Source of the DNA: a virus
Taxonomy: Duplodnaviria; Caudoviricetes
DNA length: 52,070 nucleotides
Strand: one strand, 5' to 3'
IMG/VR virus record: IMGVR_UViG_3300036852_000324
Location: 1 to 52,070 of that record
Below the pieces are notes generated by a model. That model saw nothing but the letters and a program-made list of their open reading frames with translations, had not been told where the DNA came from and made no database searches. Below are positions 6,523 through 33,533 of the stretch, piece by piece (position 1 is the first letter of the stretch; each line of letters begins with the position of its first letter). Made by a program: the position numbers and the translations under genes.

Positions 6523-8293
6523 GACCCGCGCGATCGAGCAGCGCCGCCGGCATGGCGACGACAGCGCAAACTTGGTCGATATGCGCCTCGACATGGAGCT
6601 AAACGATCAGCTCCTGCTGGCGTGCGGTGGGCGCTGGAATCGAAGGCTGAACGACTGGGAGGGCGATGTCGACGCCTGCGAGAACGCGGTTGTCGCGCGG
6701 CTGCACCCCGGTCAACTCAAGGCCACGCAGTGGTTCGCTGGATGGATCGGTGTTCACGCCGGCCGGCGCGACAATCCGCCGGGAGACGCCGAGCTGAACG
6801 ACGAGGACATCAGCACCGATCCCTTCGAGGTCTACTCCGCCCTGGTCGCTGGTGGCCGGCGTGGTGGAAAGACGTTCTGGGCGGCCGTCGCCGTCGTTGC
6901 ATACGCGGTCCAGTTCCCCGGTGCGATCATCTGGTGTGTCAGCCCGAGCCGTGGACGAGACGACACCAAGGCCGACGAGATCCGACGCTACATGGTCCCG
7001 CTGATCGCGCCGGAATGGATCCGGCGGCAGACCGTGGCGACGGGATGGGAGCTGATCAACGGTTCCACGATCATGCTCAAGAGCGCCCACATTGGGACGG
7101 ACTCCGACGCCATCAAGGAGGGTCAGGCGGACCTGGTGTGGATGAACGAGTCACAGAAGATGGCGAAGCGGGTCTACGTGGTCGCCCGCGGCGCGATCTC
7201 TGATAAGTCGGGGCTCGTGCTGTGCTGCGCCAACCCGCCGGTCGAAGCCAAGGATCAGCAGTGGGTCTCGGACTTCGCGGCGGACACCGATTCGGGACGC
7301 CGCGCGAGCGTTCACCTCCCGTTCAATCCCCTCGACAACCCCCACATCGACCGGCGCGCGTTGCTCGCGATGGCCGCCGAGCTGGACGAGCGAACATTTC
7401 AGATCGAAGTGCTCGGCATGTTCATGCCGGCGATCGACTGCGTCGCATACAACTGGCTGCGCAAGGAGAACGAAATCCGCACGCCCCAGCCGACGGTCGA
7501 CGGCCACCGGCAGGTCCCATGCCCCCGGACCGGGCTCGTAGACGTCACCGCCGAGTTTCTGCAAGGCGAGGAGGAGGGCGAGGGCATCACGAAGCTGATC
7601 GGTCTCGACGTCCAGCGCATCCCCTATATCGGGGGGCCGGTCTACAAGTTCTTCGACGAGCCTGGCAGGCGGCCGACCCGGGAAACCGTGTCCGCATGGA
7701 TCGTTGGCGAGGAGATCCTCGACGGCGGCGACGAGGAGGAGTGGTGCTACACGCTCCACGAGGCGAAGTACGATCCGACGAAGACCCTGATCGTGTGCGA
7801 CGCCACTGGCGAATATCAGCACAGCCGGCGCCGCGCGGCGGACAGCCCCCCACCGACCTGGACCGGGCGTGGAAGCTTCGATCTGATCCGCGGTGCGGGG
7901 TTTCGCCGGATCGTTCCCCCCTCGCGCCGGTTCCATCGCAAGAACCCGGAAATCGTCGACCGAATCCGGTCGTTCACGTCCATGATCTGCAACAAGCTCG
8001 GGGTTCGGCGTCTATTCGCCGATCCCGACCTTGCTCCGAAGACATGCAAGGCGATCCACGAGTGGAAGGCGATCAACGGCAAGCCGTCGCGCTCGCAGGA
8101 CGTGGCCCACCTGGGGGATGGGATCAGCTACCCGCTGATCCGCCTCTTCCCAAGAATCCTTCGATCTGGCAACACCGTACCTATGGATCCTGTGACAGAG
8201 CGCGTCGATCGCCCGCGGGCGGACGCCGGAGATCGATTCTTCGGAGCCCCGACGCCGGCGGCGCGCCGGCCTCCGCGAAACCGTGGGCTGTAG
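6506..8293 (+). CDS. terL: Terminase large subunit
   Basis: Walker A GGRRGGKT, Walker B-like LVWMNE, motif III CCANP, C-terminal nuclease region LIGLD...HLGDG; precedes portal. Confidence 0.85.
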   Translation: MPKAAETRAIEQRRRHGDDSANLVDMRLDMELNDQLLLACGGRWNRRLNDWEGDVDACENAVVARLHPGQLKATQWFAGWIGVHAGRRDNPPGDAELNDEDISTDPFEVYSALVAGGRRGGKTFWAAVAVVAYAVQFPGAIIWCVSPSRGRDDTKADEIRRYMVPLIAPEWIRRQTVATGWELINGSTIMLKSAHIGTDSDAIKEGQADLVWMNESQKMAKRVYVVARGAISDKSGLVLCCANPPVEAKDQQWVSDFAADTDSGRRASVHLPFNPLDNPHIDRRALLAMAAELDERTFQIEVLGMFMPAIDCVAYNWLRKENEIRTPQPTVDGHRQVPCPRTGLVDVTAEFLQGEEEGEGITKLIGLDVQRIPYIGGPVYKFFDEPGRRPTRETVSAWIVGEEILDGGDEEEWCYTLHEAKYDPTKTLIVCDATGEYQHSRRRAADSPPPTWTGRGSFDLIRGAGFRRIVPPSRRFHRKNPEIVDRIRSFTSMICNKLGVRRLFADPDLAPKTCKAIHEWKAINGKPSRSQDVAHLGDGISYPLIRLFPRILRSGNTVPMDPVTERVDRPRADAGDRFFGAPTPAARRPPRNRGL

Positions 8294-22965: not shown

Positions 22966-24510
22966 ATGCCATTCCAGATCCCATCAATGGACGAAGCCCG
23001 CGAGTTCATCGTGGCGCTCGGCAAGGCCCTGTTTCCGACGAGGAACTTCGGGTCTCGCCGGTCGTACCACGGTCGACGCGTCACGATTATCGCGGGTGCC
23101 ACCACGCAGCTCCACTCGCACGTGGACGGCGTTGCTCGAGATTCCCATCCGCTGACCGCTGGTCCAGGAAAGCCCATCCTGAACTGGGGCGAGGCCGCTG
23201 GAGTGGTCATCAAGACGGCAACGCCGGCGCGTAAGGCCGCCGCCGCGCGGGTTCGTGGCGCGGCGACCGCGACCGCCTCGATCGGGGACCTCCTCCGTCA
23301 TGAGTCCTCCGGGTTGCTCTACGAGCTGGCCAGCGCGGTGACCATCCCCGGTATCATCTCGGACCCGGACTCCTTCGTGGATGCCGACATCGTGGCGTCG
23401 GAGGCCAACGGATCTGTCGGGTCCCAGACCCGGCTCGACGTGGGTGAGACCCTGAACTTCGTCACCACGCCGGTCGGCATCCAGACCGCGGTGGTCCTTC
23501 AGCTCGCCCTGGACGAGGACGGGTTCGACGCCGAGCAGTTCGGCAGCTACCGGGCCCGCGTGCTCGCCACGTTCTCACAGTCCCCCTCGGGCGGGAACCA
23601 GAGCGACTTCGTGAAGTGGGCGCTCGCGAGCCTGAACACGGTCGCCGCTGCCTTCGCGTACCCGAATCGCGCTGGCCGCGGGACGATCGATGTCGTCGGG
23701 TTCTACAACGGAACCGGTACCGCGCGGTCTCTAACCCCCGACGACCGGGATACCGTCCAGGCGTATATCGAGACCCAGGCCCCGTTCAACATATCGGGAG
23801 ATGGCGGTGGCCTTCGGATCCTCACGACCGTGGCCGATCCGAGAAACGTCGAGATTCTCCTCGAGCCCAACGGTCAGGCCGCGTTCGCCTTCGACTGGGA
23901 CGACACCGTCGCCATGGTCGTGTTGAGCTGGACCGCCGCGACCCGCGCGCTTCGGTTCACCACGCCGCTTCCGGCTTCGATGCGCGCTGGCCATCGCCTG
24001 GTCCTGGTCGCCGTCGCCAGCGCACAGGACGGCACCGAGTACCGGATCGAATCGATCTCCTCGTCGGACACCGTGATCCTCGAGAAGACCCCGCCGATCG
24101 CCCCGGTCGCAACTGATCTGGTGTACAGCGGCGGACCGCTGGTGACCCCGGTCAGGGCTGCGATCGTGGCCCACATGAACGGCGAGATCGTCTACGCCGG
24201 GCGCGGCCTCACGCCGGTCCCGGCCAGCGTGGCGGCATCGAGCGGCCTATCGATCGTTGGCCTGGACATCCTGGCCGATGGCATCGGTCCGGCGAACCCC
24301 GGCGGCATCTACAACTCGACCAACGGCCCGCAGTGGAGCGGCGCCATCATCCGAGCCCAGCTATTCGGCATCGCGAAGTACAAGGCCGGCGTGCGGAACG
24401 TGACGATCGTGACGCCGGCTGCCGACTACGAGGCCGTGGACGACGCCTTCCCGAACGACTCACAGATCCACTACATCACGCCAGGCGCGGTCGTGGTGAG
24501 GAGCGCGTAG
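22966..24510 (+). CDS. Baseplate J/Mu gp47-like protein
   Basis: GFDAE..SYRARVL, SGGNQSDFVKWA, AFAYPNRAGRGTIDV. Confidence 0.85.
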   Translation: MPFQIPSMDEAREFIVALGKALFPTRNFGSRRSYHGRRVTIIAGATTQLHSHVDGVARDSHPLTAGPGKPILNWGEAAGVVIKTATPARKAAAARVRGAATATASIGDLLRHESSGLLYELASAVTIPGIISDPDSFVDADIVASEANGSVGSQTRLDVGETLNFVTTPVGIQTAVVLQLALDEDGFDAEQFGSYRARVLATFSQSPSGGNQSDFVKWALASLNTVAAAFAYPNRAGRGTIDVVGFYNGTGTARSLTPDDRDTVQAYIETQAPFNISGDGGGLRILTTVADPRNVEILLEPNGQAAFAFDWDDTVAMVVLSWTAATRALRFTTPLPASMRAGHRLVLVAVASAQDGTEYRIESISSSDTVILEKTPPIAPVATDLVYSGGPLVTPVRAAIVAHMNGEIVYAGRGLTPVPASVAASSGLSIVGLDILADGIGPANPGGIYNSTNGPQWSGAIIRAQLFGIAKYKAGVRNVTIVTPAADYEAVDDAFPNDSQIHYITPGAVVVRSA

Positions 24511-24513
24511 TCG

Positions 24514-26325
24514 ATGCAGAATCTGACCAGCAGACGCAAGCTCGTGATGAGCGGGACCAAGATCCTGGTCGTCGTAGGGCAGTCGAACGGGAACGGGTTT
24601 GCGTTCACCGCGAACCAGATCGCGGTTCCCAATATCAGCTTCCCATATGCGGCCGTGAAGGAGATCGACCACGGCGCCACCATCAACGGCGATCCGCTCG
24701 TGTGGACGTTCGATCGTCCGGTCACGCTCGGAAACACCCTGCCGTCTCCGGTGGGCGTGGTTCCCGTTTCGCTGTCTCCTCGCACCGGAGACGCGAACGG
24801 GGATTCGGGTGTCGAGCTGTCGCTTATGCGCCGGCTAGATCGGGCATGGCCGGGACGCTGGGCGCTCGCGAAAATGTGCATCCCATCGTCTTCGATGCTC
24901 AACTGGATCGCGCCGCCAGACACGAGCGCGTACCCGACCGCGACGCCGCACCTATGGGATCAGTGGCTCGCGTTCCTGACGTTCTGCGAGGTCGTGTTCA
25001 ACGGAAAGATTTGGGCAGTCAATGACCACCAGGGCGAGAGCGATGCCCAGACCGCGCCGCTCTCCTCGACATGGGAGGCGCGCAAGATCAACTTCATCGT
25101 TGGTACGCGCAACTTCCTAGCGCGAACTACTCCGTGGTTCCTGCCGAGACTGCACTCGACCTCTCCGGGCTCGTTCAACGCGACCATCCGTACGGCGACG
25201 GCGAACATCGCGAATAACACGACCGGTAATACGCCGCGCTGTAAGATGATCGACATCGATTCGGTTGGGGTCACGACGCTGCACTACACCGACGACCAGT
25301 ATGCGGTCGCGGGCGTGGTCGAGTCGCGGGATGTGATCTCGTTCCTCGATCTGACCGAGCCGCCGGCGTCGTTGTTCTCTTGGTCCTGGTCGGGGACGAC
25401 CGTCACGTTCACCGATGCGTCGGTGGCCGGCGTTGGTCGCACGATAGTCTCGAGACTATACGACTTCGGGGACGCCTCTACGAGCACATCGACGAACCCC
25501 GTGCACGTCTACAGCGTACTGGGGACCTACACGGTCACGCTCAAGACCACCGATGACCGCGGCTCGATCGATATCTGCACCCGCCTGGTGACCTGTGCCG
25601 CCGGCAACTGGACCGTCGATGCAAAGAGCGGCAGGGCGGTTCCTGCAACGTCCGGCGAGGTCGCTGCGCTTTTTGCTGCAGCCGGACTCGGGTTCTCTCC
25701 GACCTCGGCCTATCTACCTGGCACCCCTACAGCCACTCCGATAGCGGATATCGTCGGGGCGTTTCCGCTCACAGTCGCCGGAGCGACGGTCGAGTTTCAG
25801 TCGACGGTTCCGAACTGGAACACGAAGGCGCTTCGCACGATCAACAACGTGACGGACGGCGCGTCTACGACCGATGCAGCACTTCCAGATGTCCTGACGA
25901 CTTCATGCCTCGCGATCGTTCAGGCGGCGATCTGGACGACACCAACGTCTACCCGCGGCGTGGTCGCGATGGGAACCACGGAGACGCAGCTGAGTTTCAA
26001 CAACGCCAACCCGCCGCGTATGCTCGTCAGGTCGAACACGCAAAGCACGACCGGTACCGCGGACGTCAATAACGACGTGCATCTGTTGATGCTGCGCCAC
26101 AACCGAACGGCTTCGACGTGCAAGATGATCACAGACCTCGAGCCCCCGGTTACCTGCACGTTCGCCACGAGCGTGACCGGTAAGCGGTTCAGGATCGGTC
26201 TCACAAGCTCGGCATCGCCTGGCGCGCAATTTGTTCACGTCATGAGAATCGACGGCGCGAACTCCGAGCTGTCGGACGCGCAGTGCAAGACCCTCGGCAA
26301 TGTCATGGGCTACGTGATGCCATGA
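24514..26325 (+). CDS. Virion-associated SGNH/SASA-type carbohydrate esterase + PKD domain + LamG-like beta domain
   Basis: VVVGQSNG, HQGESD and TLHY catalytic blocks; PKD motif FTDAS...YDFGD...NPVHVY..GTYTVTL. Confidence 0.75.
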   Translation: MQNLTSRRKLVMSGTKILVVVGQSNGNGFAFTANQIAVPNISFPYAAVKEIDHGATINGDPLVWTFDRPVTLGNTLPSPVGVVPVSLSPRTGDANGDSGVELSLMRRLDRAWPGRWALAKMCIPSSSMLNWIAPPDTSAYPTATPHLWDQWLAFLTFCEVVFNGKIWAVNDHQGESDAQTAPLSSTWEARKINFIVGTRNFLARTTPWFLPRLHSTSPGSFNATIRTATANIANNTTGNTPRCKMIDIDSVGVTTLHYTDDQYAVAGVVESRDVISFLDLTEPPASLFSWSWSGTTVTFTDASVAGVGRTIVSRLYDFGDASTSTSTNPVHVYSVLGTYTVTLKTTDDRGSIDICTRLVTCAAGNWTVDAKSGRAVPATSGEVAALFAAAGLGFSPTSAYLPGTPTATPIADIVGAFPLTVAGATVEFQSTVPNWNTKALRTINNVTDGASTTDAALPDVLTTSCLAIVQAAIWTTPTSTRGVVAMGTTETQLSFNNANPPRMLVRSNTQSTTGTADVNNDVHLLMLRHNRTASTCKMITDLEPPVTCTFATSVTGKRFRIGLTSSASPGAQFVHVMRIDGANSELSDAQCKTLGNVMGYVMP

Positions 26326-26341
26326 GCGAAGGAGCGTAACC

Positions 26342-26908
26342 ATGCAGCGCATCAAGCAATCAGATCCCCGAGCGGCCTTCCGTCGCATTTACTTCATGTG
26401 CGTTGACGTCAACAACCTGCAGACCCGGCTGCAGGCGTCGGACATGTCGACGTTCACGGTCCGAATCAGCAAGAACGGTGCAGCCGCCGGCGCGGCAGCA
26501 GCGGCGGCCCCGACCGAGATCGACGCGACCAACGCCAAGGGGATGTTCTATGTGGAGCTTGCCGTGGCCGACATCGGGACCGCGGGTCACGCCGTCCTGG
26601 TGATCACCAACGCAGGCGGCACGAAGACGATGGAGCGCCTGGAGATCACCCTGGAGGTCCAGCAGGCGATCGTTGCGAGCGCGATAACGGGCACGCTGAC
26701 GACCTCGACGTTCACCACGGACCGGACCGAGGCCACCACCGATTACTGGAAGGACGCCCTTGTCCTATTCCTGACCGGTAATCTGGCCGGACAGGTCAAG
26801 GAGGTTGGCGCGTACAACGGGACCACCAAGATGTTCACGTTGACCTCCGGCCTGGTCTTCACGGCGGCGCCGGCCAACGGCGACGTGTTCGAGATCATCA
26901 ACCGGTAG
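26342..26908 (+). CDS. Hypothetical tail/virion protein (Thr/Ala-rich beta)
   Basis: AAGGAG SD; within baseplate region. Confidence 0.6.
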   Translation: MQRIKQSDPRAAFRRIYFMCVDVNNLQTRLQASDMSTFTVRISKNGAAAGAAAAAAPTEIDATNAKGMFYVELAVADIGTAGHAVLVITNAGGTKTMERLEITLEVQQAIVASAITGTLTTSTFTTDRTEATTDYWKDALVLFLTGNLAGQVKEVGAYNGTTKMFTLTSGLVFTAAPANGDVFEIINR

Positions 26909-26909
26909 C

Positions 26910-28910
26910 ATGTCGAGGATCCTCTTCAGGGCGTTCGGCGGAGCGCCTCTGGCTCCGGTCCCACTTCCACTTGCCGGCAGTGGGAAGATCATCGAATTCG
27001 ATCCGCCGGGTGCGATCGGTCTCCCGCTCCGTGATGCGGTCGTGCTGTTCCGGTTCGATGAGACTGACCTCGTCTCCGGTCCGGCCGATGCGGCGCGCAC
27101 CGTAGGGGACCTTCTACCGTTCTCCGGCGGTGTCATCCCGGTCGTGGGGGATGGCGTCTGCGGGCGAACTAGGGTGTTCGTGCCTTCGCCGGCCGCCGCA
27201 TTCATCGGAGATGACCTCGCCGACAAGTCCTCCCTGCTGACTCGGGACATGACCATACAGGTAATCCTGTCGATGGACGCCGCAGCGCAGAGCGCCTCCG
27301 GTCACGCCGGCATGGTTGTGGCCCGCGGGACTGGTTCCGCGGCTGCGCAGTACCGGTGCTATGGTCTCGAGATCGTAGTCGATAGTGCCACGTCCTTCCT
27401 GTTCACGATGCGGTGGGTCTGGCAGGACACCGCGGGCGTCGACAAGACGCAGACCGGCGCGCAGTTCTCGATGCCGCCGCCCCTCGGTACCGACTTCACC
27501 ATGCTCACCGCGACTCGCCGGTGGGTCTCGCCGACCGAGGTCGTACTTCGCTACTACATCGGGGACCTCTTCCTCGGCGAGGTCGTCAGCGCGGACGGCT
27601 CGATCGGCGGCGGCACCCTGGGGAGGTTCCTGGTCGGGGCGGCTCCGTCCTCCGGCAACAACCGGGAGTTCGCTGGCGCGATCGACGAGCTTCTGATCCT
27701 CGACCACGAGATCTCGCACGAGGAAGTGGAGGCCACGTGGCTGCGCATCACCAGGTGGCAACCCCTGGGATATCAGCTGATTAGAGAGCTTCACGACAAG
27801 GGGCACCCGAACAGTCCTGACCCGGGAACCGATGTCCAGCTCGACCTCCGCATGACCGGCAATGCGCTCGGCTACGCCGCCGCAAGAGCGGAGGACGTAC
27901 GCGCCAACATCCTTCCCCAGCGCGCCTACGGGTCTGTACTCGAGGACTGGGAGGAGGTCGTCCGGGTCACACCTGAGCCCCAGCAGGACATCGATACGCG
28001 GCGCGCGCGCGTCCTGGCCAAGATCCGTCAGCGCCTGGGCAGCTCGCTCCCTGGGTTCGGTGATGCGCTCGCGGGCCTACTCGGCGGCGGCGCCATCACC
28101 GACCTGGAATTCCTGGCGTTCTCCAACCAGATCGACACCGACTTCGCTACCATCGATCCCCTGCGATGGGACGAGACGCCTACCACGGCGTTCTCGGTCG
28201 TCTCTGGCGCGGCGTCCTGTCAGCCCGGTGCTGGAACGTTCCTGATGAACGGAGTTACGCGGACCTGGGTGACCCTGCGCCAGACGGTAGGCGGAGACGC
28301 CAAGCAGGCGCATGCGCTGACGAAGCTCGTGTTTACGACGCCCCAGTCGGTGGCTGAGGCCGGGATCTACTTCGAGAATGCCGGAGCGGGCAACTACCTT
28401 CTGCTCGGACTACGGGACGACGCGGGCTCGTTCAAGATCCAGACGGAGATATTCCTGGGCGGCGTCTCGCAGGGCCTGGTTCTCCAGGCGACCCTGGGCG
28501 CCAACCCGGCGGCGGTGTGGCTTCACCTCTACCAGACCGTGGTCGATGGTACGTGGAAGGCGGAGTGGTCGGTCACCAGCGGAACCACCGGCTTCACGTC
28601 CTCGGCAAACATCACGTTCCCGACCGCGGCGCACTGGACCGGATGCTATCTGCGCTCGACCGGGGCCATCGCCGCTCCGCGCGCCGACTTCGACGACCAC
28701 AAGCTCTACGAGCCGTTCAGCGGTCGGCCATTCAACGCGTACATCTTGCTCGATCGTTCGCTCGGTTTCTCGCCGGACATCGACGGCGCAAACGATGTCA
28801 TCTCCGCGATCAAGCACGGATTTGTGCATGGCGCGTTCATCACGAATCCGGTCCTTCTGGCGGACGATCCTGACGGCGGTGCGGATGTCGCACCTACCGG
28901 TGGGTACTGA
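26910..28910 (+). CDS. Baseplate wedge gp48/DUF2313-like protein flanked by LamG/ConA-like domains
   Basis: LFRFDE and FAGAIDELLI (LamG); LEDWEEVV...IDTRRARVLAK (gp48/P2 I-like). Confidence 0.7.
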   Translation: MSRILFRAFGGAPLAPVPLPLAGSGKIIEFDPPGAIGLPLRDAVVLFRFDETDLVSGPADAARTVGDLLPFSGGVIPVVGDGVCGRTRVFVPSPAAAFIGDDLADKSSLLTRDMTIQVILSMDAAAQSASGHAGMVVARGTGSAAAQYRCYGLEIVVDSATSFLFTMRWVWQDTAGVDKTQTGAQFSMPPPLGTDFTMLTATRRWVSPTEVVLRYYIGDLFLGEVVSADGSIGGGTLGRFLVGAAPSSGNNREFAGAIDELLILDHEISHEEVEATWLRITRWQPLGYQLIRELHDKGHPNSPDPGTDVQLDLRMTGNALGYAAARAEDVRANILPQRAYGSVLEDWEEVVRVTPEPQQDIDTRRARVLAKIRQRLGSSLPGFGDALAGLLGGGAITDLEFLAFSNQIDTDFATIDPLRWDETPTTAFSVVSGAASCQPGAGTFLMNGVTRTWVTLRQTVGGDAKQAHALTKLVFTTPQSVAEAGIYFENAGAGNYLLLGLRDDAGSFKIQTEIFLGGVSQGLVLQATLGANPAAVWLHLYQTVVDGTWKAEWSVTSGTTGFTSSANITFPTAAHWTGCYLRSTGAIAAPRADFDDHKLYEPFSGRPFNAYILLDRSLGFSPDIDGANDVISAIKHGFVHGAFITNPVLLADDPDGGADVAPTGGY

Positions 28911-28925
28911 AGCATCATGATGCAC

Positions 28926-28955
28926 TTGACATCAAAAGATGCAATTGTTAACAGT
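28926..28955 (+). promoter_or_regulatory. Putative sigma70 promoter (TTGACA -35) for first lipoprotein-like gene
   Basis: TTGACA at 28926, weak -10 (TAACAG/AACAGT); GTG start 36 nt from the -35. Confidence 0.5.
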
Positions 28956-28961
28956 GTGCAC

Positions 28962-29636
28962 GTGAAGACCTCTCTCGTCGTGTTACTTGCCGTGTTGTCA
29001 TCCTGCGGAGATGACCTCATTGGGCATCCCGATTCCGCTTTACCGACCGAAGATGCGGTCATCGACAACTCTGTCGAGCAAGGATGCATGGGTAATCTAC
29101 CGACGAGTCGCACTGTGACCATCAACCCGGGGGATCCGATCCCCGGTACTATCATAAACGAGCTTCAGGACATGGTGGTCGGAGGACGACGCCCTTCCTA
29201 TACGGTCAAGATCCCGTTCAGGTCCCTGGTGCAGACCTCCTCCACTGGAGCCCTTACAGTGGTCGACAATCCATCTGGAGGGACACAGCCATTTCAGGTA
29301 GTGAAATTCATATCCCCTGGATCCCTGGGTTGTCGAATAGCTCTACCGTTCACGATCGGGGATACGCTAACGGCGTTCTCCATGGACGTATACGGTAACG
29401 GTGTGGTCGACTCCAACGCGGATCTCGAGGTCAGGGACCAGGCCGGCGCATCCGTTGCTTCCCTGGCTACGGTATCCTCAGGCGCTCTACCTGCGTCTTG
29501 GTCGGTCATATCGGTCGCAACATCCTCCACCCTTCCCAGGGTCATGCTGATCACCGATGTCCTCGTGATTCGTCCATTTACTGCAGCAGCCGGAACCCTG
29601 CACTACGGACACGCCTACCTGACCTTCAGGAGATAG
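28962..29636 (+). CDS. Lipoprotein-signal-bearing tail-fibre-like protein (paralogue 1); possible internal start 29088
   Basis: MKTSLVVLLAVLSS-C lipobox-like; IPGTIINELQDMVVG resembles tail-fibre N-terminal attachment motif; occupies Mu gp49 slot. Confidence 0.6.
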   Translation: MKTSLVVLLAVLSSCGDDLIGHPDSALPTEDAVIDNSVEQGCMGNLPTSRTVTINPGDPIPGTIINELQDMVVGGRRPSYTVKIPFRSLVQTSSTGALTVVDNPSGGTQPFQVVKFISPGSLGCRIALPFTIGDTLTAFSMDVYGNGVVDSNADLEVRDQAGASVASLATVSSGALPASWSVISVATSSTLPRVMLITDVLVIRPFTAAAGTLHYGHAYLTFRR

Positions 29637-29644
29637 TTAGCAAT

Positions 29645-29672
29645 ATACGTACCCAATTACATGGGTACGTAT
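29645..29672. terminator. 11-bp inverted repeat ATACGTACCCA-attaca-TGGGTACGTAT (terminator or operator)
   Basis: Perfect stem just after the stop of paralogue 1; no clear U-tract. Confidence 0.5.
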
Positions 29673-29685
29673 GTGCAATAGGTAG

Positions 29686-29715
29686 TTGACGCCACGCACA
29701 CCGCAGTACTAGGTA
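29686..29715 (+). promoter_or_regulatory. Putative sigma70 promoter (TTGACG -35) for second lipoprotein-like gene
   Basis: TTGACG at 29686; ATG 36 nt downstream; no SD. Confidence 0.45.
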
Positions 29716-29721
29716 TCAGGC

Positions 29722-30459
29722 ATGCCAGCAAAATACCTAGTAGCCATGTGCGTGGCGTCCTGTTCTACATATCAATCATCATCACCGGACGCAAGGGTCG
29801 GACCGGTGAGGGGGCTAGATAGAGCCGAGACCGACTGCGGGATAGTTCCCTGCTGTTGGCCGGGAGGTCCACCGGACGAGGGCAACTGCCCTCCTCGTCC
29901 TGCCAATGCGTACGTGCCGAACCTTCCCGACGGAAGAAGCGTCACCCTGAATTCGGGAGATCCGATCCCGGTCGAACTTCTCAACGAGCTTCAGGACATG
30001 ATCGTAGGATCGAGGAGGACCACATTTGTATCCAGGATACCGATGCGGTCCCTGGTCCAGTCCTCGCCTGACGGCCGGATTACTTTGGCGACCAATCCAG
30101 CCGTAGGGGCATCCGCGCAGGTTGTGAAATTCACCACCACGGGAGGCGAGTTCGAGAGAGTTTGCATCCCGACCGAGGTAGGCGACACCATCATGTCCGG
30201 CGCGATCGAGGTCTGGGGCAACGGAGCGATGGATCCGCTCATAGACCTGAAGGTCAGGGACAAGAACGACGCCCTCGTTCAATTCGTTGCCCAGTCCAGC
30301 TCATTCAACCTCCCGGCTTCGTGGACCAACGTGTCGATAGTCAATCAGGTGTCCACCAGAACCCTGCTGGCTACCGATGTTCTGTGTCTTGACTTCGGTT
30401 TCACCACTTCACCGGGATCGCTTTACCTCAACAATCTGTATCTTACGTTCGTCCACTAG
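29722..30459 (+). CDS. Signal-peptide/lipoprotein-like tail-fibre paralogue 2
   Basis: MPAKYLVAMCVAS-C; NLPDGRSVTLNSGDPIPVELLNELQDMIVG and the rest align collinearly with paralogue 1. Confidence 0.6.
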   Translation: MPAKYLVAMCVASCSTYQSSSPDARVGPVRGLDRAETDCGIVPCCWPGGPPDEGNCPPRPANAYVPNLPDGRSVTLNSGDPIPVELLNELQDMIVGSRRTTFVSRIPMRSLVQSSPDGRITLATNPAVGASAQVVKFTTTGGEFERVCIPTEVGDTIMSGAIEVWGNGAMDPLIDLKVRDKNDALVQFVAQSSSFNLPASWTNVSIVNQVSTRTLLATDVLCLDFGFTTSPGSLYLNNLYLTFVH

Positions 30460-30510
30460 GGCGGAATCTTCTTCTTGTGCCTACCGTCCGGTGCATGTAA
30501 CCAGGATGGG

Positions 30511-30975
30511 ATGGCTCACCGATCCCGCACCCCACCAATAGGGATGCCCGTCTCCATTTCACCGGTCGGACCGGATGACCCGGTGGAGACGATGCGCATC
30601 CTCACTCGCAGATCTCACGACACGCAGCGCAACACCGAGACGACGCTCGACCGGGTAGACGGTCTTCGAATCGAGCTAGGTGGACGCATCGACCAGCTCG
30701 ATGCGCAGATCGCGGAGGTCGCGGTCGGTAGCGCCAGGGTCGAGGGCAAGCTCGACATCCTGGTCGGCGCCGTCAGCCGATCGCTTGACGCACAAAGCCA
30801 GGGCCACATTTCAGCAATCACGGCCAGGATCGAGATGGAGCGAACTGACCAGCTGGCATCCATCAACGCCCGCAGGGAGCGTTGGAAGCTTGCCCAAAAC
30901 GTAATCATCAAGGCCATCGCCGGCATTGGTGTAGCGTGGGCCGCAATTGCCACCGCCATCGCGAAGGGATGCTGA
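30511..30975 (+). CDS. Coiled-coil protein with C-terminal TM (lysis-associated/holin-like)
   Basis: C-terminal hydrophobic helix; first gene of lysis cassette. Confidence 0.5.
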   Translation: MAHRSRTPPIGMPVSISPVGPDDPVETMRILTRRSHDTQRNTETTLDRVDGLRIELGGRIDQLDAQIAEVAVGSARVEGKLDILVGAVSRSLDAQSQGHISAITARIEMERTDQLASINARRERWKLAQNVIIKAIAGIGVAWAAIATAIAKGC

Positions 30976-31442
30976 TGCTGTTCGAGATCCTAGCTGGCGT
31001 CGGCGCAGTCGGTACCGCGGCAGGATGGCTATTCGCCTGGAGATCTCGCGGAGAAGCTCTGGCGGCCCGCGGCGATGCCAACGCGGCAGGTGAGCGGGCC
31101 AGGATGGCCGAGGTCAAGTCCGCCGCCATGGAGCAGCAAGCCCTCGACGCGGAGTCCCGTGCGGCCGTCGCCGTCATTCAATACAAGTCCACAGCGACCG
31201 ACCTCGAGATCACACAGCAGGACCTCCTTCGGGAGCGAATCCTAAGAGGAGATCTACTTGATAAGCTTGCAAAACTTGGCGCTCCTGTCGGCGATGAGCT
31301 GCTGGACAGCACCATCCGCCGGCTGTACGAGAACCGTCACCGTCCGGGAAACGCAAACAGTCCGAGTCCCGGTGCCGGTGGAGATCTATCGGGTGTGCCC
31401 AGCGACCCTGCCAAGCCTCCCGCCGCCACCGGAAAGAGCTGA
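30975..31442 (+). CDS. Inner-membrane spanin (Rz-like)
   Basis: N-terminal TM followed by coiled-coil; overlapped by a lipoprotein ORF in +1 frame. Confidence 0.65.
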   Translation: MLFEILAGVGAVGTAAGWLFAWRSRGEALAARGDANAAGERARMAEVKSAAMEQQALDAESRAAVAVIQYKSTATDLEITQQDLLRERILRGDLLDKLAKLGAPVGDELLDSTIRRLYENRHRPGNANSPSPGAGGDLSGVPSDPAKPPAATGKS

Positions 31443-31581
31443 TGGCGTTCGCTGTACGGAAGCGTTCGGCAAGGGGTCGGCTTGCTATAACCCCGAGGGC
31501 TCCATTCGCATGGCGGCCCTCCTGATGGTCCTGACCGGGGTGTACGAAGCCCGCGAGGCCTGCGGCACTGCCAAACCGTAG
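31258..31581 (+). CDS. Outer-membrane lipoprotein spanin (Rz1-like)
   Basis: Hydrophobic leader with Cys (AMSC or SAGC), Pro-rich mature part; GAGGAG SD; overlaps Rz-like gene. Confidence 0.65.
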   Translation: MISLQNLALLSAMSCWTAPSAGCTRTVTVRETQTVRVPVPVEIYRVCPATLPSLPPPPERADGVRCTEAFGKGSACYNPEGSIRMAALLMVLTGVYEAREACGTAKP

Positions 31582-31621
31582 ACTGGACTCCGACCACCGG
31601 ATCGTGGCAACACCGGAGTAC

Positions 31622-32059
31622 ATGACCAAACGAATCCTGCAGTCACTTGGAGTACTCGCCGTTCTGGCCCTGTACGTGGGAACCGCGCTGGCCGCCGATG
31701 CCCCACCGAGCCCGGACGCTGACGCCGCCGGATGGATCAAGGCCCTCTACGAGGCGGTCACCAGTAAGAACTGGGGCCTCGTGGCCGGCGTGGTCCTGAT
31801 CGGCCTGGTGTATCCGCTGCGCCGGTTCGGTCCGTCGATATTCAAGACGGGATTTGGCGGGATTGTTCTGGCGTTTCTGACGTCTCTGGCCGGCACGTTC
31901 GGCATCGCCCTGGCCGCGGGAGCGAAGCCCAACCTGGCCATGATCGTAACCGCCGTAACCACCGCGGCGACGGCCGCCGGGTTATGGCAATGGATCAAGG
32001 ACCACATCCCTGGGATGCAGGAGGTCGCCGACAAGGCGGTCGAGAAGAAGGCGTCGTGA
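31622..32059 (+). CDS. Holin-like multi-TM protein
   Basis: 3-4 hydrophobic segments; directly upstream of endolysin. Confidence 0.65.
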   Translation: MTKRILQSLGVLAVLALYVGTALAADAPPSPDADAAGWIKALYEAVTSKNWGLVAGVVLIGLVYPLRRFGPSIFKTGFGGIVLAFLTSLAGTFGIALAAGAKPNLAMIVTAVTTAATAAGLWQWIKDHIPGMQEVADKAVEKKAS

Positions 32060-32793
32060 AGATCGATCCACTGTTCATCGACACCTACGCGGGCGATAGG
32101 CCCTGCGACTGGGCGCGTTTTATCGCCGCGGGTCCGCCCTGGCATGGCGCCATCTTCAAGATGTCCGAGGGCCTTCGATACGAATACGCGGCCTGGGTCA
32201 GTCGACAGCGCGCCCTGTTCGTGGCCAGCGAGCGCTATGGCGTCGACCTGTTCGACGGGCTCTACCACTACCTCGACATTGGCGCGAGCGGAGCCATGCA
32301 GGCGGAGTGGTTCTGGTCCCTGACGCAGAACGCCGGCGGAGAGAAGATCGGAACCCTGTGGGGGATGGTTGACGTGGAGCGCTCCGGGCAGCGCGTTCCG
32401 TTGACCAGGTCCCGGGTCACCGACTGCATCGGATCCTTCGCAAACCGGTACGAGCAGCTCGCGGGCCGCAAGGCCACGCTGTACGGCGGAGAGCTGCTGC
32501 GCGCGATCGGCGCGCAGGGCCTGTACGGCTGCGGGCGTTCGGCGGTTGCCATGTACTCCACCGAGCTGCACGGCAAGGGCGAGTCAACCGAGCACTTCCT
32601 ACGCCGAACGGGAACCGACCTGGCGCACCTGCTGTTCTGGCAGTACGACGGCACCGAGGCTAGCACTGGCCCGGTCGGGTACCCGCGCGCGGCTCCCGGA
32701 TGCCCGAATGTCGACATCTCGGCGCTGGTAGTGCCCCAGGGAATTGCGGGGCTGCGTTCTATGATCTGGCCTGAAGATCCCGCGGGCCGCTAG
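32056..32793 (+). CDS. Endolysin, GH25 muramidase-like
   Basis: FIDT, IFKMSEG, GLYHY, MVDVE, LFWQY, NVDIS match GH25 (DxE catalytic motif). Confidence 0.8.
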   Translation: MKIDPLFIDTYAGDRPCDWARFIAAGPPWHGAIFKMSEGLRYEYAAWVSRQRALFVASERYGVDLFDGLYHYLDIGASGAMQAEWFWSLTQNAGGEKIGTLWGMVDVERSGQRVPLTRSRVTDCIGSFANRYEQLAGRKATLYGGELLRAIGAQGLYGCGRSAVAMYSTELHGKGESTEHFLRRTGTDLAHLLFWQYDGTEASTGPVGYPRAAPGCPNVDISALVVPQGIAGLRSMIWPEDPAGR

Positions 32794-33210
32794 CTCCGCC
32801 CTCTTCTTCTGAATCCTGGCCCTCCGCAGATCGTTACCGCGCTGTTTCACGTAGCGTATATACGTATCCGGGTCGGCCGCTTTCATCTTCGCCGCTTGGT
32901 GGTCTGGATGATATCGACGGTCGGTTCCGGGCATGCCGCACTTGGAGCATCGAATACGACCGTCAATGGGGGGAATTACGGCCCCCCTGACCCGGATATA
33001 CCTGCGTTCTCCAATAAACTTGGCGCCCCGGAACGTCACGCATCCAACATCAATCAGCCACGCCAGTACATACCAACACTGACGCTCACCATAGGATCCG
33101 TAGTCCGATCGGAAGTCCTCGAAGATCTCGTGGGCCGTCTTTCCGAACCGGTCGACGTGTTCGAGCATGATCTCCCGCTTCATGCGGGCCTCACTACGGG
33201 TCGGCATCAT
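32599..33210 (-). CDS. Hypothetical nucleic-acid-binding protein (wHTH-like + CxxC knuckle)
   Basis: Last gene of the coupled - strand operon; CSKCGMPG; 3' end overlaps endolysin antisense. Confidence 0.55.
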   Translation of the reverse strand: MMPTRSEARMKREIMLEHVDRFGKTAHEIFEDFRSDYGSYGERQCWYVLAWLIDVGCVTFRGAKFIGERRYIRVRGAVIPPIDGRIRCSKCGMPGTDRRYHPDHQAAKMKAADPDTYIRYVKQRGNDLRRARIQKKRAELAARGIFRPDHRTQPRNSLGHYQRRDVDIRASGSRARVPDRASASLGAVVLPEQQVRQVGSRSA

Positions 33211-33533
33211 CCCTCCACGATCTGGATGACGCTAGCTCCTGCATCCTGTCGGAGGCGATCGATCTCCCTTTCGCATCGAGCGAGCGCCTTGACCAGGGCT
33301 CCGATCTGGTCCCCTAGATCCTGAACCTCCCAGTCGAGGGAGTCGATCAACTCACTGGCCATGCGCTTCTCGATCTTGGCGGACTCGAGTGACCGATGAT
33401 ACATCTCCTCGAACAGGTCAGCGCTGGCGGCGTTCTCGACTGCGACCGAGGACCAGTTCTCGGCGATCTCTGTCAGGGCTTGGTGCTGTTCCGCGAGTTC
33501 ATCAAGAAAATGTGGGCCGATATCGTCGCTCAT
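33207..33533 (-). CDS. Acidic coiled-coil hypothetical protein
   Basis: ATGA overlaps. Confidence 0.6.
   Translation of the reverse strand: MSDDIGPHFLDELAEQHQALTEIAENWSSVAVENAASADLFEEMYHRSLESAKIEKRMASELIDSLDWEVQDLGDQIGALVKALARCEREIDRLRQDAGASVIQIVEG

Follow-up and report, generated by a model that had tools for sequence, protein, structure and literature searches.

Phage lipoproteins and tail proteins that resemble the locus described here are known from several systems. Cor of phi80 and N15 is a phage lipoprotein that blocks the phage's own receptor, and Llp of T5 is a phage lipoprotein that is not known to be related in sequence to the T5 binding protein pb5. The genes bor and lom of lambda are morons of temperate phages, S105/S107 of lambda is a dual-start gene, and the tail fibres gp49 (S) of Mu and gpH of P2 follow the gp48/gpI wedge gene. 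In Legionella, the target of a diversity-generating retroelement (DGR), LdtA, is a lipoprotein of the cell surface that folds like a phage receptor-binding protein (RBP). In one account, Llp is described as a small lipoprotein encoded near the receptor-binding gene and thought to stop both superinfection and adsorption to lysed cells, and as a periplasmic protein that jams FhuA allosterically (PMC9586334); endolysins with internal translational start sites are described in another (PMC12203907). Here we analyse two paralogous genes that lie directly after a gp48-like baseplate wedge gene in the record IMGVR_UViG_3300036852_000324 of a soil phage (hereafter the window, i.e., the whole virus record of 52,070 bases, 98% complete). 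The explanation that we tentatively favour, and to which as a whole we give slightly less than an even chance, is that both belong to a family of tail RBPs in front of which an export cassette has been placed, with paralogue 1 giving two isoforms, paralogue 2 giving a lipoprotein only and the tethered copies being directed at the receptor.

The two collinear paralogues recognized in the initial annotation were confirmed by BLASTP (81/179 identities, 45%; E 2e-48). Residues 60-237 of the open reading frame (ORF) 28917-29636 align with residues 67-243 of ORF 29722-30459, the N-terminal extensions do not align, and the two are the only copies of the family in the 52-kb record. Their position after the gp48-like gene, also given in that annotation, is the fixed home of the family in 10 related loci. 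The parts of the two genes are as follows.

26910-28910, + strand: gp48-like baseplate wedge gene, 666 residues (Pfam Phage_Mu_Gp48, E 6.4e-13, above the cut-off).
28962-29006, + strand: putative lipoprotein signal of paralogue 1, with a GTG start, Lys2, a hydrophobic run and L-S-S-C (Cys15 codon at 29004-29006).
29007-29087, + strand: linker, or tether, of paralogue 1 (PD.A ... DA ... G-C), predicted to be disordered and ending in AAGGA (29080-29084) and TGC.
29088-29636, + strand: core of paralogue 1, 182 residues, with an MGNLP...LNELQD module (helix 20-32) and a beta-sandwich like those of carbohydrate-binding module (CBM) families 6/36.
29722-29913, + strand: putative signal and linker of paralogue 2, with V-A-S-C (Cys14 codon at 29761-29763) and a longer linker in which PDA/DRA is followed by a Cys/Pro-rich stretch.
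29914-30459, + strand: core of paralogue 2, with GTG 29914 at the former start position and no Shine-Dalgarno sequence.

The public gene call for paralogue 2 (P0001, 30043-30459; 138 residues) begins at Met108, so that the conserved N-terminal module is missing from it, as are the linker and signal that precede this module.

An exhaustive phmmer search returned 162 relatives at E≤1e-3 (150 listed), and those that were looked up all come from metagenome assemblies and are either unnamed or 'hypothetical'. The neighbours in the ESM Atlas are unnamed viral clusters; neither paralogue was placed with Llp or Cor, since neither fell into any Pfam (E≤0.1) or PHROG (E≤0.01) family. A sequence search of the PDB gave 0 matches, tblastn against 50,697 phage records gave no match, and a word-indexed protein search with paralogue 2 returned only the window's own shortened gene call. 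In the host search, 1 of 251 Methylomirabilota genomes carries the family, and the sole match in genome collections is a contig of a metagenome-assembled genome. The family is without a name in any source searched, and the literature found, part of which was available as excerpts, includes no paper that describes it and none on an RBP with a lipoprotein isoform.

Relatives differ in what precedes the shared core. Short forms (~165-190 residues) have their first residue at the position that Met58 occupies in paralogue 1 (M-G-N-L-P), whereas long forms (~210-260 residues) carry a short lipobox signal, a Pro/Asp/Ala-rich linker and Gly-Cys before M-G-N-L-P. A first count among the matches listed gave 84 short, 63 long and 3 unclassed, and a stricter motif test of 148 listed matches (the window's two being set aside) gave 70 short, 60 long and 18 unclassed; the extension is present in ~40% of the listed family members. 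The core itself consists of a conserved N-terminus of ~33 residues (MGNLP...LNELQD), followed by a CBM6/36-like beta-sandwich. In an AlphaFold2 (AF2) model of the core, built on a 101-row alignment (predicted local distance difference test score (pLDDT) 89.9; predicted template-modelling score 0.84), an extended N-terminus and helix 20-32 lead into the beta-sandwich. Residues 35-182 of this model superpose on CBM6/CBM36/CBM35 (best Z 11.6; root-mean-square deviation 2.7 Å over 123 residues), and the core also superposes on domain III of Cry toxins and on the C-terminal domains of tailspikes (Z 9.9 for CBA120 TSP4 and 9.2 for Kp32gp38). Foldseek gave E ~3e-4 against the PDB and ~1e-4 against viral models (BFVD), including tail fibre and tailspike proteins, with template-modelling scores of 0.3-0.5. 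The model thus shows a carbohydrate-binding-module-like fold that is shared with tailspike domains, a likeness that implies neither function nor kinship. A complex prediction for the gp48-like protein with the core domain (score 0.00, mark 0.32) weighs neither way.

Locus scans (15-row alignment) yielded 3 viral, 1 genome and 11 metagenome loci, designated L003 to L017. L009 duplicates L003, L014 duplicates L005 over the stretch read and L008 duplicates L007, which leaves 14 distinct family genes including those of the window. In L003, L004, L005, L006, L007, L010, L011, L012, L016 and L017, a gp48-like gene is followed by one family gene and then by lysis genes, and a gp47-like gene precedes the gp48-like one in those ten loci wherever the contig reaches. 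L003, L005, L010, L016 and L017 hold true short forms, with the ATG 1-3 nucleotides (nt) past the gp48 stop or overlapping it and with GGAGG or GGAG upstream in all five. In L005, L016, L017 and several database matches, only the first ~30-40 residues are common and other C-terminal domains follow, those of L016/L017 matching phrog_3398 'virion structural protein'. This is what is usually seen where an attachment module stays fixed and binding domains are swapped, and we take the short form to be a small baseplate-attached RBP. The paralogues would likewise be modular small tail RBPs whose ~33-residue module probably docks to the gp48-type baseplate wedge.

The lipoprotein extension was found in 9 of the 14 family genes, namely both window genes, L013, L015, and L004, L006, L007, L011 and L012, in the last five of which the long form is the sole family gene of the slot. 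In L005, besides the short form, there is a convergent gene (6525-7463, - strand) for a 312-residue lipoprotein without the MGNLP module; the C-terminal domain of this lipoprotein and the binding domain of the adjacent short form share 35% identity (E 3e-10). Longer lipoproteins with an extra domain before the MGNLP module are encoded in L013 (826-1920; 364 residues) and L015 (421-1467; 348 residues), where the genes converge on the gp48-like gene rather than succeed it; between the extra domain of L013 and the first domain of the 312-residue protein of L005 there is a weak likeness (E 0.004).

The L005 pair also bears on a different proposal, that the lipoprotein serves the host or the infection otherwise, as a surface lectin or adhesin, by binding nascent polysaccharide in the periplasm, or as an accessory of the lysis cassette. 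Such a role would suit the CBM-like fold, the adjoining lysis genes, the nearly invariant Asp residues and Cys of the tether, which suggest more than a passive spacer, and the retention of the N-terminal module even in lipoprotein-only forms. However, the same domain is carried by short-form relatives in the tail slot, the short form and the lipoprotein copy of its binding domain in L005 point to a tie with the phage's own receptor, and no match to lysis or adhesin families was found in the family searches, so that we regard this proposal as quite improbable.

The paralogues are AT-richer than the tail genes, as had been noticed at the outset (G+C 0.55-0.59 over 28600-30599 against 0.65-0.675 over 26800-28799). 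Low G+C is also found in short forms (0.546 in L003, versus 0.621 for its gp48 gene, and 0.525 in L010); it is thus common to the whole family and no mark of lipoprotein conversion. Low G+C as a sign of a foreign insert was rejected, the short forms being equally low.

Both N-termini had been described as resembling lipoprotein signals, and both indeed do. They were scored by a PROSITE-type lipobox rule (a positively charged n-region, a hydrophobic h-region and [LVI][ASTVI][GAS]C near the N-terminus). Paralogue 1 passes; paralogue 2, with its Lys4 and a signal that is one or two residues too short, fails the strict form and fits the short signals of the family. Signal peptides are unusually short throughout the family, the lipobox Cys often standing at 11-15. 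The strict rule is passed by 40 of 65 long forms, and it is because the signals are so short that the other 25 fail, most of them on length only (Cys at 11-13). Among the 48 long forms that were aligned, the lipobox Cys never varies, and conservation is ≥90% at M1, D24, D35 and C42. GTG 28962 of paralogue 1 aligns with the start Met of homologues, and ATG 28917/28920, located 7 nt past the gp48 stop, offer alternative in-frame starts.

As for the tether, Asp24 and Asp35 sit in PDA/DA motifs and Cys42 immediately precedes the internal Met. Judged by its sequence, the tether is not a random spacer. An AF2 model of the paralogue 1 precursor has a helix at 3-13, a stretch of pLDDT <50 at residues 24-45 (24-28, 30-45) and then the folded core, which is how a signal peptide with a flexible tether would be expected to look. 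Pairing of the linker Cys with one fixed Cys of the core was considered and is not supported, as the core Cys columns are scattered. The linker type of paralogue 2 is common to P0013, P0032 and P0079, which likewise have no internal Met; a search of viral contigs for the loci of P0013 and P0079, whose linkers are of the Cys/Pro type, gave none.

The conservation of the extension argues against its being untranslated, with the true genes starting at ATG 29088 and GTG 29914 and the upstream frame being promoter or leader DNA. Many relatives do start at that Met, the public gene call does shorten paralogue 2, and the 'HLTS' peptide found in gene calls that begin further upstream is best read as a TTGAC box. 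Yet the frame is open in every long form, the invariant lipobox Cys, the four ≥90% conserved positions and the pass rate given above all concern residues of the extension, and GTG 29914 has no Shine-Dalgarno sequence (+1.2 kcal/mol). The lipoprotein extension is thereby supported as real coding sequence, and an untranslated extension appears extremely improbable.

Upstream of the extensions, TTGAC occurs exactly 36 nt 5′ of both starts (28926 and 29686), as the initial annotation had stated. TTGAC has 97 occurrences on both strands of the 52-kb window, i.e., ~1 per 1,070 strand positions. The two elements are:

28926-28954, + strand: promoter-like element of paralogue 1, with TTGACA (28926-28931), 14 nt, TGt (28946-28948) and TAACAG (28949-28954).
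29686-29691, + strand: upstream box of paralogue 2, TTGACG, 36 nt before the ATG, without TGnTA and with no clear -10.

The start codon of paralogue 1 lies 7 nt 3′ of its element, which is a leaderless geometry. When the upstream regions were compared in ungapped register (instead of the MAFFT alignment, in which three rows were misplaced), they followed a common order of TTGAC(A/T/G), a 17-nt spacer ending in TGn in five loci, TAnnnn, 7 nt and the start. The full TTGAC-N15-TGnTA pattern is present in paralogue 1, L007 and L012, is met with one -35 mismatch each in L004 (TTCACG) and L011 (TTGATG), and is absent from L006, L013 and L015; if one -35 mismatch is allowed, 5 of 9 loci have their start 7 nt 3′ of TTGAC-N15-TGnTAnnnn. 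The window contains a single copy of the composite TTGAC-N15-TGNTA, where 0.03 copies are expected. The lipoprotein starts have no Shine-Dalgarno sequence (0.0 kcal/mol in the window, +1.9 in L004, +1.5 in L007 and +0.6 in L011). Given the geometry of the element, the 5′ end of a transcript made from it would fall at the start codon.

Within the long forms, the former start codon is still recognizable. An in-frame ATG (29088-29090) lies exactly where homology between the paralogues begins, and 70-84 database relatives begin at that residue. Of 60 long forms, 51 have Met at this position, 5 have Val, 2 have Leu and 2 have Thr (Met makes up 1.5% overall); both sequences with Thr and one of those with Leu carry Cys/Pro-rich linkers resembling that of paralogue 2. 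The second residue of the short forms is G/A/T/P in 80 of 84, and methionine aminopeptidase removes the initiator Met before such small residues; the Met therefore has no structural role. GGAGGA precedes the internal ATG in L007, L012 and L013 (3 of 8 loci; in L013 after the extra domain), with a pairing energy of -9.5 kcal/mol where 3.3% of background positions reach -8, the energies being computed against an anti-Shine-Dalgarno sequence. A weaker GGGA is found in L006 and GGA in L004, and there is no motif in L011 and L015. In 5 of 6 loci the Gly that precedes the Cys is encoded by GGA, a codon with a usage of 17.8% (P ~9e-4 if the loci are independent). Furthermore, L004, L006, L007, L011 and L012 hold the long form only, so that any virion copy in those phages must use the internal start.

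The dual start proposed in the initial annotation is thus borne out in part, by the short-form relatives and by the Met that is kept in the long forms, while paralogue 2 has only a GTG without a Shine-Dalgarno sequence and the Shine-Dalgarno sequence of the window is ordinary. Homologues that start at the internal Met, which together with upstream sequence that is not conserved were named there as speaking against the proposal, do exist in the short forms; in the long forms, however, the upstream sequence is conserved, and homologues starting at the internal Met therefore do not refute it. Paralogue 1 is probably a two-isoform gene (virion protein and lipoprotein), and paralogue 2 is read as lipoprotein only.

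The junction between linker and core offers a clue to the origin of the cassette. The linker end GGAGGATGC...ATG is closely like the short-form junction GGAGGATAC TGATG, which in the short-form loci consists of the last gp48-like codons (Gly-Gly-Tyr-stop) and the coupled start. The cassette seems to have come in together with a duplication of the junction. The likeness extends to the window at 28899-28920, to L007 at 1442-1470 and to the sequence upstream of the start in L010/L016, and in L004 and L007 the frame of the lipoprotein ORF also contains an ATG that overlaps the gp48 stop. A quick IQ-TREE tree of the core domain places long forms among short ones, and its supported branches require at least 8 switches; thus the cassette often moves or is lost. 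The genes of the window form a group together with P0004 (support 99), in which the closer relative of paralogue 2 is P0004 and not paralogue 1, so the second copy is no recent local duplicate.

The mechanism that we propose would run as follows. The cassette, placed before the old start codon, would bring a housekeeping-type promoter, a short lipoprotein signal and a flexible PDA-rich tether ending in Gly-Cys. From this promoter a leaderless mRNA starting at or next to the start codon would be made and translated into a pre-lipoprotein. Once exported, this would receive its lipid at Cys15 in paralogue 1 or at Cys14 in paralogue 2, and would stay tethered to the envelope while its binding domain remained free. 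Ribosomes on the long late tail transcript would instead use the internal ATG 29088, giving a cytoplasmic 182-residue form that would join the baseplate; in paralogue 2 the internal start appears to have been lost, which would leave the lipoprotein only. The tethered copies would most likely act on the phage's own receptor, either in superinfection exclusion or in sparing progeny from adsorption to infected cells and debris. Such masking is suggested because an RBP and a lipoprotein copy of its domain recur in four layouts, i.e., a fused gene with an internal start, tandem copies (the window), a separate convergent lipoprotein (L005) and longer fusions (L013 and L015), and because T5 Llp offers a precedent. 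As to the wider claim that throughout a widespread family one frame gives two topologically opposite products, a cytoplasmic virion protein from the internal start on the late transcript and a lipid-anchored copy from a leaderless mRNA under a host-type promoter, we consider it unlikely.

A number of observations weigh against this explanation as a whole. The claim that both genes have promoters of their own holds insofar as the TTGAC spacing is kept in other phages, together with an extended -10-like TGnTA, but nothing in 26000-33500 passes a strict sigma-70 scan, which demands at the last -10 position a T that is absent from these hexamers. Conservation is therefore the basis of the promoter call, and paralogue 2 has a -35 only. 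A leaderless GTG start, as in paralogue 1, is unusual, and ATG 28917 could serve as the pre-lipoprotein start on the late transcript. No RNA run containing the stretch was found in the sequencing-run search, which listed a single DNA run that may be its source. Tyrosine integrase and resolvase families gave 0 matches in the window, and expression from a prophage is therefore not established. Some of the short forms in the databases may be miscalls like P0001, or calls at the internal ATG of long ORFs. With a binding domain of carbohydrate type, the tethered copies would have to reach an abundant surface glycan, and Llp is described as acting from the periplasm by allostery, unlike the mechanism proposed here (PMC9586334). 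A further candidate RBP is the 603-residue esterase-like protein with a PKD domain that is encoded between the gp47-like and gp48-like genes, so a virion copy of the family may be unneeded. At ATG 29088 itself, AAGGA stands only 3 nt upstream (-5.2 kcal/mol, a value matched by 21.5% of background positions; real gene starts of the window phage range from +0.4 to -9.2 kcal/mol), and only 1 of 6 loci has mRNA that is less folded near the internal ATG than over the remainder of the gene.

These last points would be expected if the genes were lipoprotein-only accessory genes (morons), the internal Met and Shine-Dalgarno sequence being leftovers of the insertion and the virion binding through the 603-residue protein or the C-terminal domains of the gp48-like protein. 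The Shine-Dalgarno sequence of the window is then simply weak and too near the ATG, there is no relaxed mRNA to account for, and the absence of the Met from paralogue 2 and from the relatives with Cys/Pro linkers follows, as does the likeness of the linker end to a copy of the gp48 3′ end plus start; the window carries extra tail genes that are absent from relatives, and the interleaving on the tree fits a frequent exchange of cassettes that carry the Met along. Yet the Met is kept in 51 of 60 long forms though their cores are ~25-45% identical and their linkers barely alignable, nearly all of its replacements are Val or Leu, the GGA codon is preferred in 5 of 6 loci, and in L004, L006, L007, L011 and L012 there is neither a second family copy nor an extra tail gene between gp47 and the lysis cassette. 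We judge lipoprotein-only accessory genes to be possible but somewhat unlikely, and retain two isoforms for paralogue 1 as the preferred reading.

The paralogues are separated by a hairpin, as claimed at the outset, with perfect 11-nt arms at 29645-29655 and 29662-29672 (11 bp), and a second stem lies at their end:

29645-29672, + strand: inter-paralogue hairpin (free energy -23.5 kcal/mol, z -3.6), with no T-run after it.
30448-30465, + strand: terminator-like stem with a T-rich tail, from a pattern scan; it overlaps the paralogue 2 stop and its fold is unexceptional (z -1.1).

In addition, a perfect 13-nt inverted repeat (29688-29700 and 29747-29759, 46 nt apart) has the start codon of paralogue 2 in its loop, one arm lying in the -35 region of that gene and the other in codons 9-13 of its signal peptide. 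By its position, this repeat could fold on a read-through transcript and not on one starting at 29722.

The surrounding gene order comprises the large terminase, portal, major head protein, tail sheath, tape measure and two hub proteins, and the other genome arm has ParB-HTH, RecT, PD-(D/E)XK and Toprim matches. The phage had been called Mu-like; this likeness is limited to the baseplate genes (gp47/gp48-type wedge), Mu transposase families not being among those searched. The gp48-like gene also matches phrog_203 (baseplate wedge), and an insert in it matches Laminin_G_3 (ConA-like; E 1.4e-5) at 25.7 bits, just under the 27.6-bit cut-off. On the 3′ side of both paralogues lie a 166-residue protein, an overlapping spanin-like pair, a holin-like gene and a GH25 endolysin. 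The nearest neighbours on the two sides are:

22966-24510: gp47/J-like wedge gene.
24514-26908: 603-residue protein (PKD domain; SASA acetylesterase match, E 4.4e-4, below the cut-off) and 188-residue protein, between the gp47-like and gp48-like genes.
30475-30975: 166-residue protein, predicted to form a coiled coil, whose C-terminal tail is hydrophobic and has Gly-Cys as its last residues; its gene separates the receptor-binding slot from the spanin-like genes.
30882-31581: overlapping spanin-like pair, i-spanin-like (N-terminal hydrophobic segment; ~30975-31442) and o-spanin-like.

In L004, L006, L010 and L011 (and, by ORF lists, in L003 and L005) gp47 is directly followed by gp48; the stretch for the 603- and 188-residue proteins may represent an added receptor-binding or receptor-modifying tail protein. 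Homologues of the 166-residue coiled-coil protein occupy the same place in L004, L007, L010, L011 and L012 and match no family. The o-spanin-like gene (31258-31581) is small, Pro-rich and carries G-C-T-R-T, and the spanin-like pair, which is kept in L004, L006, L011 and L016, implies a host with an outer membrane.

Among the known systems, Mu gp49 and P2 gpH resemble the window family in their position after a gp48-type wedge gene and in a conserved N-terminus with exchangeable C-terminal domains. In contrast to those fibres, with which it has no sequence similarity, the family is of ~175 residues with a single CBM-like domain, and neither a fibre shaft nor an assembly chaperone gene was seen in it. 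In LdtA a phage-type receptor-binding fold is displayed as a lipoprotein, as proposed here; LdtA differs in its C-type lectin fold, in its diversification by a retroelement and in lying outside a tail slot, retroelement features having been neither sought nor seen in the window. Lambda bor and lom resemble the window genes, for which promoter and envelope product are putative, in forming a unit of promoter, gene and hairpin between late genes, with deviating G+C and an envelope product. The slot in relatives of the window phage is however not empty but holds a short form, and low G+C is a trait of the family; in contrast to a moron, only the promoter, signal and tether (and the second copy) have been added to a site that always holds a family gene. 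Dual-start genes share with the proposed paralogue 1 the two in-frame starts that give a long and a short product with different roles, whereas the putative products here would differ in compartment and may stem from different transcripts. If the two-isoform reading is true, paralogue 1 would show clearly how the promoter in use decides whether initiation is leaderless or led by a Shine-Dalgarno sequence.

The closest comparison is with Llp and Cor, which to our knowledge are unrelated to the binding protein of their phage and must co-evolve with it separately. In the window, the putative lipoprotein has the domain family of the tail protein and, in contrast to T5 Llp, may share its gene: it would be the binding protein itself with an export cassette in front. 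If mask and key do share one domain in this way, a swap of host range would automatically update the specificity of self-exclusion, and, if the two-isoform reading is true, the evolution of both would be linked in one gene. Even if the window genes make lipoproteins only, a tail protein that has been repeatedly recruited to the envelope would be a new source of candidate exclusion or adhesion factors.

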